Translations under genes and position numbers: made by a program
Assembly (NCBI GenBank): GCA_000437355.1
Contig: FR899774.1
Location: forward strand, 114,595-178,594
Reading direction: 5' to 3'
Length of the DNA stretch: 64,000 nt
From: Firmicutes bacterium CAG:460
Lineage (GTDB): Bacteria > Bacillota_I > Bacilli_A > RF39 > UBA660
Part shown: piece by piece, positions 7,310 through 31,754 of the stretch
How the letters are laid out: each line of letters begins with the position of its first letter
Numbering within the stretch: position 1 is the stretch's first letter
Notes under the pieces: model-generated
What the model saw: only the letters and a program-made list of their open reading frames with translations
Databases searched by the model: none
What the model was told of the DNA's origin: nothing

Positions 7310-7633
7310 ATGTATAATTATCCTTTTAAAGAAAATGAAGAACATGTGTTAAATGAAACAGAAAACGTTAATATTAAATTTGCTAATAGAAATATACTTG
7401 TTAATATTTTGTTAACCAATAAAAATGTTTTAGTATTTTATGATACTGAGAAAGATAATGCTATGAAAGCTGGAGGAATGCAAGTAATGCCTCAGTATGA
7501 AATAGTTTTTAAAATTGATTTAGGTAATATGGATTATAAAATAAATGAAGAAGATACAGTAGTTAATATTGATGGTAAAGAAGTTATTTTATATAATTTT
7601 AATTTAAAAAATTTCATAGAAAAAGATGATTAG
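7310..7633 (+). CDS. Hypothetical small protein
   Basis: ATG at 7310 with AGGTGA SD. No recognisable motif. Convergent with the noc-like gene, overlapping its stop by 4 nt. Confidence 0.5.
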   Translation: MYNYPFKENEEHVLNETENVNIKFANRNILVNILLTNKNVLVFYDTEKDNAMKAGGMQVMPQYEIVFKIDLGNMDYKINEEDTVVNIDGKEVILYNFNLKNFIEKDD

Positions 7634-8730
7634 TTATCATCTTTTTTAATTATTATATTTATATGATATTCGTTTGGTAAACTCATTTCTTCTAGTTTAA
7701 CCTTGTTGCTATCTAAATTTAGGTCACGGATTGTTTTTATAACATAATTTAGATAATCATTGTTTTCATTATTTGTTGGAGTTTCTGGAAAATCTAGCAT
7801 TTCAATTTCTTCAGTTTGATTTTCAGGTACAACACTTTCTTGTTTTGGTATTTCAAATGTTGGGGTAACTTCTGTTGTGTCTAAGTTTGCTGCCGTATCT
7901 TCAAGAAAATTAAAGAATTTGTTTGGCATTTTTTCAGGATTTGAGAAGAATGCATCTGGGGTAATTGGTGTTGTATCAATTAATTTTTCAGGTTCTTCAT
8001 GTGGTACGATATCTTCACTTTCTAAAGCACTTGAAAATAAGTCTTCAATACTTGTTAGATTTTCTTTTTTTGGTTCTTCGTGAGTCTCAACATTAACTGG
8101 AGTTTCAACTGGAGGTAATGTATCAATGTTTTTTATTTCATCTTCAAGCTGTTTTACTGTTAATCTTTCATTTATTATTTTATTTAATAATTCTTTTTGT
8201 TTTTCATGTGATGGAACTTTTAGTAAAGTTCTAGCATGTCTTTCTGATATTTTTTCTGCCAGAATTGCTTCTTGAACTGCTTCATCTAGTGTTAATAACC
8301 TTAATTTATTAGAAATTGCTGATTGAGATAAGCCCATTTTTCTTGCTAATTCTTCTTGGGTCATGTAACCTTTATCAAGAAGTGCTTGGTAAGAACGTGC
8401 TTCTTCAATAGCTGTTAAATCCTTTCTTTGAATATTTTCAACAATTGCTACTTCAGCTGATGTATTATCATCAAGATTAGAGATTACTGCAGGTACTGAA
8501 GCAAGTCCAGCAAGTTTGGCTGCTTTATATCTTCTTTCACCAGCAATTATTTCATATTTATCATTTTTTCTTCTTAAAACTAGTGGTTGAATAATACCAT
8601 GTTGTTTAATAGAAGATGCTAAATCTGAAAGCGATGCATCATCAAAAGATAACCGTGGTTGAAAACGGTTAGGAATTATGTCCTCGATAGGAACTTGTAA
8701 TATTGTTTTTTCCATTTGTGTATTATTCAC
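7630..8730 (-). CDS. noc: ParB/Noc-family CTP-dependent DNA-binding protein, Noc-like HTH, with a ~170-aa low-complexity C-terminal extension
   Basis: Contains PNRFQPR, GERRYKAAKLAG (arginine patch), LSQSAISNKLRLLTL and ISERHARTLL. Immediately downstream of rsmG, the position noc holds in B. subtilis. Confidence 0.7.
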   Translation of the reverse strand: MNNTQMEKTILQVPIEDIIPNRFQPRLSFDDASLSDLASSIKQHGIIQPLVLRRKNDKYEIIAGERRYKAAKLAGLASVPAVISNLDDNTSAEVAIVENIQRKDLTAIEEARSYQALLDKGYMTQEELARKMGLSQSAISNKLRLLTLDEAVQEAILAEKISERHARTLLKVPSHEKQKELLNKIINERLTVKQLEDEIKNIDTLPPVETPVNVETHEEPKKENLTSIEDLFSSALESEDIVPHEEPEKLIDTTPITPDAFFSNPEKMPNKFFNFLEDTAANLDTTEVTPTFEIPKQESVVPENQTEEIEMLDFPETPTNNENNDYLNYVIKTIRDLNLDSNKVKLEEMSLPNEYHINIIIKKDDN

Positions 8731-8770: not shown

Positions 8771-9493
8771 TTAGATTTTTGCAAGGGGCTTTTTAATAAT
8801 TTTTTCATAAGGCCTTAATTCACTAGGTAATGTATCATTTATTTTTTTTATCTTAACAATATTTCTTGCTCCACCTTCATTTGGTAAAGAAAAAGTTTTA
8901 ATTTCTTTAACTTCTCCATGAGACTTAGTAATTGCAGGCAGGCTTTTTGCAATTTCTTCTTTATTACCACCTTTTAAAGCAATGAAATATCCACCATTTT
9001 TTATAAGGGGCAAAGCAAGTTCTGTTAAAACAGGCATGTTAGCTACTGCTCTAGCTGTTATGACATCATAAGAATTTAATCTTTCTTTTCTTATATTTTC
9101 TACTCTTGTGTTGATAAGTTCAAGGTTATCAACACAAATTTTTTCTTGTAATTCTGTTAGGAACTTTATCTTTTTATTATTACTATCTAACAAAGTTACC
9201 TTTAATTCTGGGAAAAATATCTTTAAAACCATTCCTGGAAAGCCTGCTCCAGTACCAAAATCAAGAAGATTTTTACAAGTCTTTAAATCAATTACTTTGG
9301 TTAGTGTTAAACTATCATAAAAATGTTTTAAATAAATATCTTCTAATTTAGTTATCGCTGTAAGATTAGTATGTTCATTATATTCTTGTAAAAACTTAGC
9401 ATAAATATCTAATTTTTCCAATATTTCTTTCGTAGGATTTAAACCTAAAGATTTTACTTCTTCAATAAATTCATTAATTGTCATTTTTGCCAT
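8771..9493 (-). CDS. rsmG: 16S rRNA (guanine527-N7)-methyltransferase
   Basis: SAM motif DFGTGAGFPG. Conserved mnmG-rsmG synteny. An alternative ATG at 9484 is possible. Confidence 0.92.
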   Translation of the reverse strand: MAKMTINEFIEEVKSLGLNPTKEILEKLDIYAKFLQEYNEHTNLTAITKLEDIYLKHFYDSLTLTKVIDLKTCKNLLDFGTGAGFPGMVLKIFFPELKVTLLDSNNKKIKFLTELQEKICVDNLELINTRVENIRKERLNSYDVITARAVANMPVLTELALPLIKNGGYFIALKGGNKEEIAKSLPAITKSHGEVKEIKTFSLPNEGGARNIVKIKKINDTLPSELRPYEKIIKKPLAKI

Positions 9494-21099: not shown

Positions 21100-22443
21100 T
21101 TGAAAACTGATGAAATTTTTACACGTTTTTTAGAAGAGATGCAAAATCAAGTAACTCCTTCGGCTTATAGTATTTGGTTTTCAAAATTAGAGCTTCTTTC
21201 TATTGTTAACAATGTTGTTACAATAAAGGTTCCTCTTAACGTGCATAAACAAATGCTTGGAGGTACTTATAAAGAAATTATCGCTAATTCTTTCTTTTCA
21301 ATAACTGGTATTTATTATACATTTAATTTTATAACGGAAGATGAAGTGGAAACTTTTGTGGAACCAGTTGTACCTGAAGATGCTGTGGATAAAGAAATTG
21401 CATGGAATACTAATTTAAATCCAAAATTTACTTTTGATAATTATGTTGTTGGTAATTCAAATAGATTAGCATTTGTGGCGGCGAGAGCTGTTGCAGAAGC
21501 ACCGGGGACTATTCATAATCCATTATTTATTTATGGAAGAAGTGGAATAGGGAAGACACATTTGATGCAAGCAATAGGTAATTATATTAAAGACCATTCT
21601 AAGTTAAAAGTATTATATACGACAAGTAATGAATTTAGAGATGAATTTACTGGAATTGCTACAAGTAATAATAAAATGGGTTATGCAAATGATTTTAAAG
21701 ATAAATATCGAAGTGTTGATGTATTAATAATAGATGATATTCAGTTTCTAGTAGAAGCTGAGAAAACTCAACAAGAGTTCTTCCATACATTTAATGCACT
21801 TCATCAAGCTAATAAACAGATAATTATTAGTAGTGATAAGAGCCCAGATGATTTGAAAAAGATTGAGGAACGTCTTAGAAGTAGATTTATGTGGGGACTT
21901 CCTGTTGATATTTATCCACCAGATTTCAACTTAAGATGTGATATTATAAGGTCAAAAATTAAAAATACAAGTATTGAAAATAAATTAAATGAAGATGTTA
22001 TAGAATATATTGCTAATTCATGTGTTAATGATGTTAGACACATTGAAGGAACTATAAACAGGTTGCTAGCTTACACTGCAATGATGGTTCCTGATAGAAT
22101 TACTTTGGATTTTGCTAATGAAGCTTTGAATGATTATGTTAATACTAACATATTTATCAACAATTCAATAGGTTCAATACAAAATGCTGTGGCAGAATAC
22201 TTTAAAATATCGGTAGATGACTTAAAAAGTAAGAGAAGAACAAATACAGTAGTTAAACCAAGGCATATTGCAATGTACTTATGTAGAGTTGAAACAGATG
22301 AAAATTTACAGAAAATTGGACTAGAATTCGGTGGAAGAGACCATTCTACAGTATCTACAGCAATTGATAAGATTAAAGAAGAGTTAGAAACTAATCCAAA
22401 TTTAAATAACATATTAAAAGAAATAAAAATGAAGTTACAATAA
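21100..22443 (+). CDS. dnaA: Chromosomal replication initiator protein DnaA
   Basis: Walker A GRSGIGKTHL, sensor/box VII region, C-terminal HTH (RHIAMYLCR..GGRDHSTV). TTG start. Confidence 0.98.
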   Translation: MKTDEIFTRFLEEMQNQVTPSAYSIWFSKLELLSIVNNVVTIKVPLNVHKQMLGGTYKEIIANSFFSITGIYYTFNFITEDEVETFVEPVVPEDAVDKEIAWNTNLNPKFTFDNYVVGNSNRLAFVAARAVAEAPGTIHNPLFIYGRSGIGKTHLMQAIGNYIKDHSKLKVLYTTSNEFRDEFTGIATSNNKMGYANDFKDKYRSVDVLIIDDIQFLVEAEKTQQEFFHTFNALHQANKQIIISSDKSPDDLKKIEERLRSRFMWGLPVDIYPPDFNLRCDIIRSKIKNTSIENKLNEDVIEYIANSCVNDVRHIEGTINRLLAYTAMMVPDRITLDFANEALNDYVNTNIFINNSIGSIQNAVAEYFKISVDDLKSKRRTNTVVKPRHIAMYLCRVETDENLQKIGLEFGGRDHSTVSTAIDKIKEELETNPNLNNILKEIKMKLQ

Positions 22444-27360: not shown

Positions 27361-29862
27361 ATGGATCATAGTAGAGATAGACTAGAAGAAAATAATATAG
27401 TAAGTGAAATTGAATCTTCTTTTATTGAATATTCAATGAGTGTTATTATTTCCAGAGCTTTACCAGATTTAAGAGATGGTTTAAAGCCAGTTCATAGAAG
27501 AATTATTTATGATATGTTAGAAAATGGTTTAACACCAGATAAAAAACATCGTAAGAGTGCGACGATAGTTGGGGATGTTATGGGGAAATATCACCCTCAT
27601 GGAGACTCATCAATTTATGAAGCTATGGTAAGAATGGCTCAAGATTTTAACTATCGTTATTTACTTGTTGATGGACATGGTAACTTTGGTAATATTGAAT
27701 ATCCTAGAGCAGCTGCTTATCGTTATACTGAAAGTAAACTTGCAAAGATATCAATGGAGCTTTTAAGGGATATCAACAAAAATACGGTTAATTTTGTACC
27801 AAATTATGATGATTCAACTGAAGAACCTGAAGTTTTACCTTCAAGATTTCCAAATATTTTAGTTAATGGAACAATGGGTATTGCTGTTGGTATGGCAACA
27901 AATATTCCACCACATAATTTAGGTGAGGTTATTGATGGATGTATTGCTTATATTGATAATCCTGAAATTACTACGGAAGAATTAATGCAATATGTTAAAG
28001 GCCCTGATTTTCCAACTGGTGGTATTATTCTAGGTAATTCTGGAATTAAAAAAGCGTATGAAACTGGTAGAGGTTCAATAACTATTAGAAGTAAAGCTAC
28101 AATTGAAGAAAAAAATGGAAGACATTATATTGTTATTGAAGAAGTTCCATACGGAGTAAATACACTAGATTTAAAACAAAAAGTTGCGGATTTAGTACAT
28201 AATAAAGTACTTGAAGGTATTACTGATTATCATACTGATTTAAAAGATGGTATTAAGATTACTATTACATTAAAGAAGGATGCAAATCCTCAAGTAGTTT
28301 TAAATAATTTGTATAAACATACTGCTTTTCAAACAACTTTTGGTATTATCTTCTTAATGCTTGATAAAGGTGTTCCAAGAACACTAGGTTTGAAAGATAT
28401 AATTAGTAAATATGTAGATTATCAACAAGAAATTATTATTAGAAGAACTCAATTTGAATTAGATAAAGCAGAAAAAAGAGTACATATCTTAGAAGGTTAC
28501 CAAATTGTATTTGATAATATCGATGAAGTTATTAAGATTATTAAAGAGTCTAAGGCTGATGGTGAAGCAAAGCTTAAATTAATGGAACGTTTTGGATTAA
28601 CTGAAGCTCAAACTGATAATATTTTAGAAATGAAATTACGTCGTTTAACAGGTCTAGAACGTGAAAAGATTGAAGAAGAACTAAATACTTTAAAACTAGA
28701 AATAGAACGCTTACGTGGCATTTTAGCAGATAATAATAAGGTGTTAGGTATCATTAAAGATGAAATGACTGAAATAAAAAATAAATATGGTGATGAAAGA
28801 AGAACTAAAATTGATATGACTGCGGTTGATTACATTGAAGATGAGTCTTTAATACCAGAAGAAAATATCTTAGTTGTGCTTACTAACAAAGGTTATATTA
28901 AGAGAACTACATCTGATACATTTAAGTCACAAAATAGAGGTGGCGTTGGAATTAAGGGAATGTCTACGAATGATGAAGACTTTGTTGAACACATGATTAA
29001 CTTATCAACACACGATTACATCTTGTTCTTTACTGATAAAGGTAAAGTTTATAGATTAAAAGGTTATGAAATTCCAGAGTTTTCACGTCAATCTAAAGGA
29101 ATTCCAATTGTTAACTTACTTCAAGTTGAAAAAGATGAAAGAGTTAATGCTGTTATCCAAATAAGTCGTGAAGAAGAATGTAAATATTTATTATTCGCTA
29201 CTGAAGGTGGAGTTGTAAAGAAAACATTAATTAGTGAATTTGCTAATATTAGAAATAGTGGTAAGATTTGTATTTCTCTAAGAGAAAATGATAAATTAAT
29301 TGATGTTAAGAAAACAACTGGTAATGATTTAGTACTTTTAGGTAGTGATAGCGGTAGAATGGTTAAGTTTAATGAAGATGAAATCAGAGTTATGGGACGT
29401 ACTGCTTCAGGTGTTCGTGGTATTTCTCTAGATGGAAGCAAATGTATTTGTTCTGAAATCGTTAAAGAAGATGATACTATCTTACTTGTAACAGAAAAAG
29501 GTTACGGTAAACAAACAAAAGTTAGTGAATATCGCCAAACAAGAAGAGGTTCTAAAGGTGTTAAAGCAATGAATATCACTGAAAAGAACGGAAATCTTGT
29601 TAGTGTTAAAATTGTTTATGAAGGTAAAGAACTTGTTATTATGACAAATTCAGGTATGACAATGAGAATGCCTTTAGAACAAATATCTTTATTAGGTCGT
29701 GTTACACAAGGTTTAAGACTTATCAACTTAAAAGATAATCAAAAGGTATCAACTATAAGCTTAGTAGATAAAGAAGAAGAACCAGATATTGTTTCAGAAC
29801 CTACTGTAAATGAAACACCTAGTGAAAATACTGAAAATATTGAAGTAAATGAGGCTGAATAA
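27361..29862 (+). CDS. gyrA: DNA gyrase subunit A
   Basis: DGLKPVHRR, catalytic-Tyr region AAYRYTE, QRDR-like [11 protein letters not shown]-terminal beta-pinwheel repeats. Confidence 0.98.
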
Positions 29863-30036
29863 GCCTTTTTTATTTTATTGTAACAGTGTATATAAAGTAT
29901 ATACAATGTTATTTTTGCTATAAGATTATGATATTATAACTAAAGCAAAAAAGAAGAATATAAGTTATCAACAAAATATTTATTTTAAGTACTCTTTAAT
30001 TGGTAAAACAATTTATTATTTTTTTGTAAAGTGTTA

Positions 30037-30783
30037 TGTTTCACGTGAAACAATGTGTGAATAATATGTTAGTTTAGGATTTATTTTTTTTAATATATTT
30101 TTAAAATTATAATACAATAACAATAATTAAAAATAATTAATATTGTTTTCGATGTTTAAATTCTTTTTCTAATTATTATTATAATTATAGTGATGTTTCA
30201 CGTGAAACATTGTGTTGATAAGTTGTTGATTTAAGATATATTTATAATATTAAATATTTTATATTTTAAATTATCTTTTTATTATTATTAATTACTATAT
30301 TTTAATATATATTTATTTTATATATTTTAAAATACATGTTTCACGTGAAACATTGTTGATAAGTTGTTTATATTAATATTATTTCTATTAATTCTAATCT
30401 TTTTTAATAATATAAATACCATGTGATTATTAAAATAATTTAATGTTTCACGTGAAACATTGTGTTGATAATATGTTTATATTCTGTTTTAGTTTAATTA
30501 TTATATTAAATTTAATCTTTTTCCAATTTAAATTATATGTTTCACGTGAAACATATTGTTGATAACGTGTTAATTTAAGGTTTATCTATATTAATATGTA
30601 TTTTTAATATTATAATACAAGATTTTCGTAAATATATATTTAATATTATTAATCGTTAATTATTATTTTTAAATTCTATATAATTTCCTATTAAAAATTT
30701 AGGTAATGTTTCACGTGAAACATTGTTAATAGGTTGTGAATAGTTTTATTGAAAATTAATACCCATATGTTACACGTGAAACA
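30037..30783. promoter_or_regulatory. Array of seven parS (ParB-binding centromere) sites
   Basis: TGTTTCACGTGAAACA at 30037-30052, 30194-30209, 30337-30352, 30444-30459, 30538-30553 and 30707-30722. TGTTACACGTGAAACA at 30768-30783. All fit the Firmicute parS consensus TGTTNCACGTGAAACA. Confidence 0.85.
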
Positions 30784-30865
30784 TATGGACGAACAAATGT
30801 ACAATAAACTAATACTTTAACATAAGAATTTAATTATTCATTTTTATCAAATCGTATTTATAAAT

Positions 30866-30881
30866 TATTTCCCGGGAAATA
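30866..30881. promoter_or_regulatory. Noc-binding site (NBS), perfect 16-mer
   Basis: TATTTCCCGGGAAATA, containing the published B. subtilis NBS core ATTTCCCGGGAAAT. It lies inside a 22-bp perfect palindrome (30863-30884). Confidence 0.75.
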
Positions 30882-31022
30882 ATTAGTTAACATAATATTT
30901 TAGTATATTTGTGTTTTTTTGAAAAAATAAATGTTAATTAAAGCTAGATACAATAAGGTAAAAACAAGAATAGCAAGATTAAAAAAATTATTATTTTAAC
31001 AATTATTTAATTTTTGAATAAA

Positions 31023-31038
31023 TATTTCCCGGGAAATA
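31023..31038. promoter_or_regulatory. Noc-binding site (NBS), perfect 16-mer
   Basis: TATTTCCCGGGAAATA. It is part of a 38-nt direct repeat (31024-31061) that matches 30867-30904 at 37 of 38 positions and also carries a GTTAAC palindrome. Confidence 0.75.
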
Positions 31039-31207
31039 ATTGGTTAACATAATATTTTAGTCGATTAAACTTATATTAATATTTAATTTTTGGCATATTT
31101 TAGCCAAAATATTAATCATAATTAAAAATAGTACATGAGTTATCAACATAAAAATTAGTTAAATATTTAATACTATAATAACTATATAATAAATGTTGGT
31201 ATTTTAC

Positions 31208-31236
31208 TTGACTTTTAAATAGTAATTTGATACGAT
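31208..31236 (+). promoter_or_regulatory. Sigma-A type promoter of the SRP RNA gene
   Basis: TTGACT (31208-31213), 17-nt spacer, TACGAT (31231-31236). Confidence 0.6.
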
Positions 31237-31240
31237 GTAA

Positions 31241-31320
31241 ACGTGCAACAAATATGCTGTAACCTGGTCAGGATTGGAAAATAGCAGCCACATCAGCCTA
31301 TGTTTGTGTGCACATTTTTT
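31241..31320 (+). ncRNA. ffs: Small (4.5S-type) signal recognition particle RNA
   Basis: CCUGGUCAGGAUUGGAAAAUAGCAGCC matches the conserved domain IV (GGUCAGG..GGAA..AGCAGCC). The 5' GTGCAACAAATATGCTG pairs with the 3' CAGCCTATGTTTGTGTGCAC. A T-run follows. The position upstream of tadA/dnaX is typical. Confidence 0.8.
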
Positions 31321-31331
31321 TTGGAGGTAAA

Positions 31332-31754
31332 ATGAATAAAGAGTTAATAGATAAAATTATTGATAATTCTAAGTGTTCTTTGAGTTCTTTAGATGTACCA
31401 GTCGGAGCAATAATAATTAAAGATGGTATTATTATAGGCAGTGGTTATAATACTAAAGAGAAAAATCAAAATGTGCTTGAACATGCTGAGATTAATGCTA
31501 TTAGAGAAGCTCAAAAAAATTTTAACAATTGGAATTTAAATGGAAGTGATATGTATGTAACTTTAAATCCTTGTTCAATGTGTATGGAAGTAATCAAACA
31601 AGCTAGAATTAGTAATGTTTATTATTTAGCTTCAAAACCTAGTTCTAAAAAAGAATTTAATAAAACTAATTTTGTTAAAATTGATAATGAAAGTAAAGAA
31701 GAAGAATATTTAGAAATATTATGTGATTTTTTTAAAAAATTAAGAGAAAAATAA
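31332..31754 (+). CDS. tadA: tRNA-specific adenosine deaminase
   Basis: Zinc motifs HAEINAI and PCSMC. ATG at 31332 with GGAGG SD; the track ORF start lies inside ffs. Confidence 0.9.
   Translation: MNKELIDKIIDNSKCSLSSLDVPVGAIIIKDGIIIGSGYNTKEKNQNVLEHAEINAIREAQKNFNNWNLNGSDMYVTLNPCSMCMEVIKQARISNVYYLASKPSSKKEFNKTNFVKIDNESKEEEYLEILCDFFKKLREK

Follow-up and report, generated by a model that had tools for sequence, protein, structure and literature searches.

ParB and Noc are paralogous DNA-binding proteins that arose by duplication and diverged in both specificity and role. ParB recognizes few sites near the origin and acts in chromosome segregation, whereas Noc recognizes many scattered sites and acts in nucleoid occlusion. 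The two recognition sequences are the parS site and the Noc-binding site (NBS), respectively.

The Noc-NBS system has been characterized in several studies (Wu et al. 2009; Adams et al. 2015, PMC4331003; Pang et al. 2017, PMC5540599; Jalal et al. 2020/2021, PMC7383237, PMC8429893). In S. aureus, 41 Noc loci are distributed over +/-700 kb, and in B. subtilis the sites extend over the chromosome's origin-proximal two-thirds (PMC5540599). S. aureus Noc also influences replication initiation (PMC5540599). Noc function depends on an N-terminal amphipathic helix formed by residues 1-14 (Adams et al. 2015, PMC4331003). Four residues set the preference for parS or NBS, R-T-A-G in ParB and Q-K-K-R in Noc (Jalal et al., PMC7383237). 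Of the NBS bases, A1 is read by Q173 and C6 by R201, while position 179 or 184 takes a permissive Lys or Arg, and a single K or R at either position was enough in 91% of NBS-specific variants (PMC7383237). G201 is absolutely conserved in extant ParB; in a scan of Caulobacter ParB, dual-specificity variants mostly carried T or S at 201, and Ser also occurred in parS-specific ones (PMC7383237). In a literature search, neither a mixed or adjacent parS/NBS array nor a Noc protein without its helix was found to have been described.

Predicted Noc-binding sites beside the parS array of CAG:460

The assembly of Firmicutes bacterium CAG:460 comprises 1,102,474 bases in 34 contigs, with 26% G+C and 94% completeness. 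The window, by which the whole analysed stretch of 64,000 nucleotides is meant, lies on contig C33. In it, gyrA (27361-29862, plus strand) and ffs, the gene for the small SRP RNA (31237-31322, plus strand; RF00169, 58.8 bits), border a gene-free spacer of 1.35 kb that holds all seven parS sites and both NBS of the 1.1-Mb genome. The parS array (30037-30783) contains six perfect TGTTTCACGTGAAACA sites and one variant, which are the only parS sites of the genome. It is followed by NBS1, NBS2, and ffs, with tadA and dnaX beyond. NBS1 lies 98 bp after the last parS, and the pair falls 100-260 bp from it and about 8.4-9.8 kb from dnaA (21100-22443, plus strand), which was identified from its place in the gene order and from tblastn matches in relatives and marks oriC. 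The sites are few, clustered, and origin-proximal, as in a ParB-parS chromosomal centromere.

Both predicted NBS are perfect 16-bp palindromes of sequence TATTTCCCGGGAAATA, at 30866-30881 and 31023-31038, and, like the parS sites, carry no strand assignment. A sequence-only reading of this DNA had named them at these positions, and direct reading of the letters and a pattern search confirmed both. Each conforms to the published 14/16-bp palindrome (T)ATTTCCCGGGAAAT(A). Sequence comparison also upheld the claim that each half-site of these Noc-type palindromes departs from parS at two positions (TGTTTCAC for NBS, TATTTCCC for parS), in agreement with PMC7383237. Neither site has the G at position 1 and the A at position 6 of each half-site that distinguish parS, and both are the NBS variant.

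The NBS pair is far beyond chance occurrence. A search of the window for ATTTCCCGGGAAAT with up to two mismatches returned two matches only, both at the NBS pair, compared with a mean of 0.18 matches to this 14-mer, at the same tolerance, in 100 shuffles of the window. From base composition, 0.0002 perfect 16-mers are expected per genome. A genome-wide scan, suggested along with the sequence-only reading, covered all 1,102,474 bases of the assembly, again with up to two mismatches, and the NBS pair gave the only matches. Classical NBS number in the dozens and take up half to two-thirds of the chromosome on its origin-proximal side; this spread is not seen in this genome, which has two copies in 1.1 Mb.

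Each NBS lies within a longer direct repeat. The 38-nt units at 30867-30904 and 31024-31061 differ by a single base (A/G), as first described (37 of 38 identical), and a repeat search extended them to two 47-nt copies, 157 bp apart and 91% identical (family D5). Both composite copies (30863-30909 and 31020-31066, plus strand) run from the NBS through an AATT palindromic extension into (A/G)GTTAACATAAT; the repeat search delimits both, and flank conservation in the genus also supports the first. The GTTAACATAAT elements occupy 30886-30896 and 31043-31053, both on the plus strand in fixed orientation. Where about 4.4 copies of the element are expected in the genome, three occur, two of them beside the NBS pair. 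The possibility that the 38-nt unit or GTTAACATAAT belongs to a dispersed repeat, which would have undercut the link to Noc drawn in the sequence-only reading, was rejected, since neither is enriched elsewhere in the genome. The unit is local, and that link survives.

The spacer has further features. TTGTTGATAA follows most parS sites. The seventh, variant parS forms the centre of a longer palindrome, ACCCATATGTTACACGTGAAACATATGGAC (30761-30790), which a scan scored as terminator-like on the minus strand. A small hairpin, TTTTGGC-N8-GCCAAAA (31087-31109), lies between NBS2 and ffs, and a similar 'tttggc' is found in close relatives. The longest open reading frame for tadA begins with the GTG at 31308 and shares 31308-31322 with the 3' end of ffs, and the ATG at 31333 is probably the real start. 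A DnaA-box-like 9-mer, TTATCAACA, is found in the same orientation at both spacer ends (29964-29972 and 31141-31149; repeat family D8).

Conservation of the layout in the genus and family

Perfect 16-mer NBS, one to three per genome, are present in 21 of 24 other species of the genus, and a reversed-pattern control gave none. The order gyrA, parS array, NBS, ffs is found in 10 of the 12 genus loci examined, and the NBS form pairs 147-171 bp apart in many species. One member (G001) has no perfect NBS and carries ATTTCCTGGGAAAT variants with one mismatch at the same places. A second recurrent position in the genus is the 3' part of mnmE, where the site always encodes N-I-S-R-E-I, 108 codons from the end; perfect in-frame copies occur in loci L007, L016, L017, L019, L024, L027, L030, and L031. 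The mnmE gene of CAG:460 contains no relic NBS, and its homologous position reads AAATTACATCTTGTAAATTA and encodes TNLQDVI.

The pattern extends beyond the genus. Among 81 genomes of the order, representing 58 genera, 70 genomes (52 genera) contain 1-10 perfect 14-mer NBS, and the reversed-pattern control found none in any of the 81. At 16 loci from other genera, NBS are clustered in the gyrA-tadA spacer, inside dnaX, recF, or mnmE, or beside jag, and all these clusters are within about 25 kb of dnaA. Perfect in-frame NBS occur in dnaX at L146, L150, L151, L155, L156, and L159, and in recF at L157 and L158. In several genera, the start of each NBS is 25-28 bp away from that of a parS. In CAG:460 the NBS adjoin the parS array without interleaving, and functional coupling is less evident than in those genera. 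The few NBS in other families of the class are imperfect and scattered, for example at 539, 581, 1931, 2280, and 2350 kb in G038. The joint presence of parS and NBS at the origin had been called unusual from the window alone; published Noc sites are indeed scattered (PMC5540599), and the layout proves to be clade-wide here.

Conservation around the NBS is asymmetric in the genus. The NBS itself has near-maximal information content, positions +6 to +17 carry 0.57 bits per position, and the left flank, which is not conserved, carries 0.22. GTTAACATAAT keeps its orientation at most genus sites. This flank conservation bears out the earlier proposal that more than the Noc core is conserved. The placement of the element varies, from 5 nt downstream of the NBS in one subclade of the genus to about 30 nt upstream in another. 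In another genus, GGTTGACATAAT (as TTGACATAAT) appears on both sides of the NBS within a 46-bp palindrome. The family consensus is itself a longer palindrome, AAATT-ATTTCCCGGGAAAT-AATTT, which accounts for the first few bases of the 38-nt extension. The GTTAACATAAT element may be a -10-like promoter element or the site of a second protein. Its identification as a good DnaA box was rejected, as it matches the consensus TTATCCACA at only 5 of 9 positions.

Two ParB paralogues and their predicted sites

The CAG:460 genome has exactly two ParB_N genes. One lies in the window at 7630-8730 on the minus strand and encodes a 366-aa protein, the predicted reader of the NBS. It adjoins rsmG (8771-9493), which is directly upstream, the usual position of noc. 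Its ParB_N and HTH_ParB domains are well supported (PF02195 at 1.9e-33, PF17762 at 2.5e-33), and of the solved structures it best matches those of Noc (7nfu, 7ol9; Geobacillus E 2e-56, B. subtilis E 1e-52), followed by Spo0J, with KorB (8qa8, E 7.6e-13) as a distant relative. The NCBI Noc model TIGR04285 scores it at 278.8 bits, compared with 236.8 for Spo0J of the same genome, although the curated cut-off of 315 bits is not reached. Among the Noc-like proteins, GERR and ENIQR of the CTP motifs are invariant. The domains, structure matches, Noc-model score, and residue alignment together sustain the sequence-only description of this protein as Noc-like.

The second paralogue is a 298-aa Spo0J on contig C11 (L001/L181), encoded directly after Soj (ParA) and followed by ychF, rpsF, and ssb. 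The soj-spo0J genes are on a different contig and so do not adjoin the Noc-like gene in the assembly. Both paralogues are present in every genome of the genus, in which the Noc-like protein has 361-446 aa. In one genome without perfect NBS, the Noc-like gene (G014:C1:26804-27901, L047) has an in-frame TAG and may be a pseudogene or contain a sequencing error.

The specificity residues of the two proteins differ. In the Noc-like protein they are Q-K-T-R, which a HMMER alignment places against Q-K-K-R of 7ol9 and 7nfu and opposite R, H, T, and G of B. subtilis Spo0J. Three of the four NBS-type residues (Q173, K179, K184, and R201 in Caulobacter ParB numbering) are thus identical, including both base-reading residues, and the third position is Thr instead of Lys. 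The Q, K, and R are invariant in 24 of 24 genus orthologues and in about 60 orthologues from the family. Spo0J on contig C11 has R-M-K-S, with R173 as in ParB and SMSHAR in place of SMGHxR. ParB combines R173 with G201; Spo0J of the genus has R173 yet S201, and all 19 genus proteins checked are R-[I/L/M]-[K/R]-S with Ser at 201. In a family sample of 26 Spo0J proteins, position 201 is Ser in 13, Gly in 10, and Ala in 3.

Since the residues of the two paralogues match the two site classes, two readers are the simplest assignment. Most likely, to judge by these residues, two proteins read the two types of site, and one protein reading both is less likely. A single protein serving both, raised as a question from the window, does not hold as the leading interpretation, as the four specificity residues of each paralogue fit its own class of sites. 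However, Ser201 makes some cross-reading of the NBS by Spo0J possible, and the assignment of sites may not be exclusive.

In its strong form, cross-reading would mean that Spo0J of this genus, with Ser201 and Lys184, has become less strict in its specificity and loads at both parS and NBS, which would make the NBS part of the ParB centromere. The R-[I/L/M]-[K/R]-S pattern of the genus proteins would suit this explanation, as would the invariance of G201 elsewhere in ParB, the prevalence of T/S at 201 among dual-specificity variants (PMC7383237), and the physical coupling of parS and NBS across the family. Yet Ser201 is also found among parS-specific variants (PMC7383237), and R173 reads G1 of parS, not A1 of NBS. 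Moreover, NBS clusters also persist in the family members (13 of 26) whose residue 201 is Gly or Ala, and every genome retains a dedicated paralogue in which Q, K, and R are invariant. Loading of Spo0J at both types of site is therefore considered unlikely.

Assignment of the NBS to the Noc-like protein agrees with much of the Noc-NBS system of B. subtilis and S. aureus. The 16-bp palindrome is the same, and the paralogue is ParB-derived, follows rsmG, and has the base-reading Q and R, a permissive K, the CTP motifs, and a C-terminal domain of the ParB/Noc type. However, there are two sites here and 1-10 across the family, compared with about 40-70 classically, and all are found no further than about 25 kb from oriC, next to parS or interleaved with it. 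Further differences are the score below the NCBIfam Noc cut-off and the separation of soj-spo0J from the gene in CAG:460.

The Noc-like protein also has a different architecture. It lacks the N-terminal amphipathic membrane helix, as indicated by the alignment, by stop codons upstream of the start, and by AlphaFold2 rather than by a hydrophobic-moment scan of N-termini, which is non-discriminating at such short lengths. Ahead of the segment aligned with about residue 27 of B. subtilis Noc there are just six polar residues; a stop codon is directly upstream of the start, and the same short N-terminus is found family-wide. In other families of the class, Noc begins with helix-like motifs (MGLFDFLG, MASLFNIL, MRKSILDIFEK, MPNRFFDIF). 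An AlphaFold2 model built with 36 homologues (mean pLDDT 72) shows no helix at residues 1-9, a folded region at 10-203, and a folded C-terminal domain at 323-361. The intervening linker of about 120 aa (204-320) is disordered and acidic, with a net charge of -23 and a short modelled helix at 273-278. Most of the linker is unalignable, but two short motifs are conserved, the near-invariant EKMPNKFFNFLEDxAANM (about 266-282), with F272 and F273 invariant in 36 sequences, and EEIEMLD(D)F (about 306-314).

The first of these motifs (268-278) resembles the N-terminal motif MPNRFFDIFTE of Erysipelotrichaceae-type Noc, a likeness that rests on few residues. This similarity suggests that the membrane helix may have been relocated into the linker as PNKFFNFLE, rather than simply lost. 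The modelled confidence of the region is low (pLDDT only about 55), and the motif is absent from several genera of the family. The N-terminus also lacks the ParA-interacting LG(K/R)GL motif that Spo0J has, and no ParA partner of the Noc-like protein is evident.

Possible roles at the origin

Compared with the ParB/Spo0J-parS centromere, the NBS pair is similar in consisting of few, perfect, clustered, origin-proximal palindromes, located in the same intergenic slot as the parS array, with a CTP-dependent ParB-family clamp as the predicted reader. Unlike that centromere, it has the NBS variant, and its predicted reader carries Q and R at the base-reading positions in place of R and G and lacks an evident ParA partner or an LG(K/R)GL motif. 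From the sequences and uniqueness of the sites, the residues and architecture of the paralogues, and the conservation of the layout, we infer how the Noc-like protein would bind, spread with CTP, contact the membrane, and act in the cell.

The two palindromes would be the genome's only loading sites for the 366-aa paralogue, a predicted CTP-dependent DNA clamp of the Noc family, while Spo0J (ParB) would load at the seven parS sites. Both paralogues would then come together at a single origin-proximal locus, about 9 kb from oriC, and form a centromere-like region of two proteins. With two sites, both at the origin, the Noc-like clamp could not coat the chromosome arms as Bacillus Noc does and would most likely be confined to the origin region. 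That this clamp loads only at the two NBS beside parS and acts on the origin region is, on present sequence evidence, probable. It may serve as an origin tether or marker, with the conserved PNKFFNFLE helix of the linker perhaps providing contact with the membrane. Alternatively, it may block division over unsegregated origins or modulate either initiation or ParB/SMC loading. MinC (PF03775) was not detected in the 94%-complete assembly, which makes an origin-bound division inhibitor conceivable; a class A PBP and SpoIIR are present. For initiation, S. aureus Noc offers a precedent (PMC5540599), and the ParB-family sites here are origin-proximal and next to DnaA-box-like 9-mers, although the GTTAACATAAT element next to the NBS has the poor DnaA-box match described above.

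A more conventional explanation is classical nucleoid occlusion by an ordinary Noc, for which two strong origin-proximal sites and spreading would suffice in a very small cell and genome. The nearest structural and sequence relatives of the protein are Noc, its gene occupies the noc position after rsmG, and published NBS are biased to the origin-proximal chromosome, with Noc spreading over 8-10 kb (PMC5540599). The lack of a detectable MinC makes some division-site control by Noc plausible, and the linker motif might provide membrane binding. Nevertheless, the N-terminal helix required for Noc function (PMC4331003) is absent, and spreading over about 10 kb from two sites would take in 1-2% of the chromosome, compared with 41 loci over +/-700 kb in S. 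aureus. The tight pairing with parS across the family is also foreign to classical Noc. An ordinary occlusion role is thus improbable, though it fares no worse than relaxed reading by Spo0J.

It is slightly less probable still that the NBS and GTTAACATAAT form an operator-promoter, with CATAAT as the -10 element and the Noc-like protein as a KorB- or VirB-like transcriptional regulator of a short rightward transcript or of the ffs-tadA-dnaX genes. KorB and VirB are ParB-fold CTPase switches that also use few specific sites near promoter-like sequence, KorB is among the structural relatives of the protein, and the orientation of GTTAACATAAT is fixed beside the NBS, each of its positions suiting an operator that overlaps a promoter. 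However, the protein is much closer in sequence to Noc, and a partner such as KorA was not identified. A sigma-A or sporulation-sigma promoter at the extension was rejected as more than a minor candidate, since a convincing -35 element is absent and the scan performed no better than shuffles; the AT-rich spacer has 28 promoter-like matches against 20.5 expected, and the NBS sites are not singled out. The ffs gene has its own promoter, TTGACT-17-TACGAT, at 31208-31236. In addition, many NBS of relatives lie in coding sequence (mnmE, dnaX, recF) without GTTAACATAAT, and in most genera the partner of the NBS is parS, not GTTAACATAAT.

Recent local duplication of a functionless chance palindrome would account for the 91% identity over 47 nt, but it is effectively refuted by the minute number of sites expected per genome, by the retention of NBS at one and the same locus across most of the genus and family even as the neighbouring DNA, including the left flank, diverges, and by the empty reversed-pattern control.

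Loading of the Noc-like clamp at the origin NBS is thus the preferred reading. A broader proposal, advanced only tentatively and with clearly less confidence than the loading itself, is that this family of uncultured gut Bacilli with small genomes has a two-paralogue centromere, in which a Noc-derived clamp that has lost its N-terminal membrane helix, perhaps by relocation into the linker, and that loads only at origin-proximal NBS beside or interleaved with parS is combined with a Ser201 ParB. If this is true, Noc would have been repurposed from a chromosome-wide division inhibitor to an origin organizer or tether. Alternatively, the arrangement would preserve an intermediate stage by which Noc evolved from ParB. 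Noc-type specificity is kept here, the distribution of sites is ParB-like and tied to parS, and the membrane helix is gone from its usual place. Both proteins are small and appear soluble, and the claims can be addressed in vitro or in E. coli or B. subtilis without culturing the organism. If confirmed, the Q-K-T-R Noc and the R-x-K-S ParB would provide natural variants for the published specificity rules, and the Noc recognition code would be separable from the nucleoid-occlusion function. Confirmation would also reveal an undescribed organization of the origin region in abundant uncultured gut bacteria without detectable MinC.
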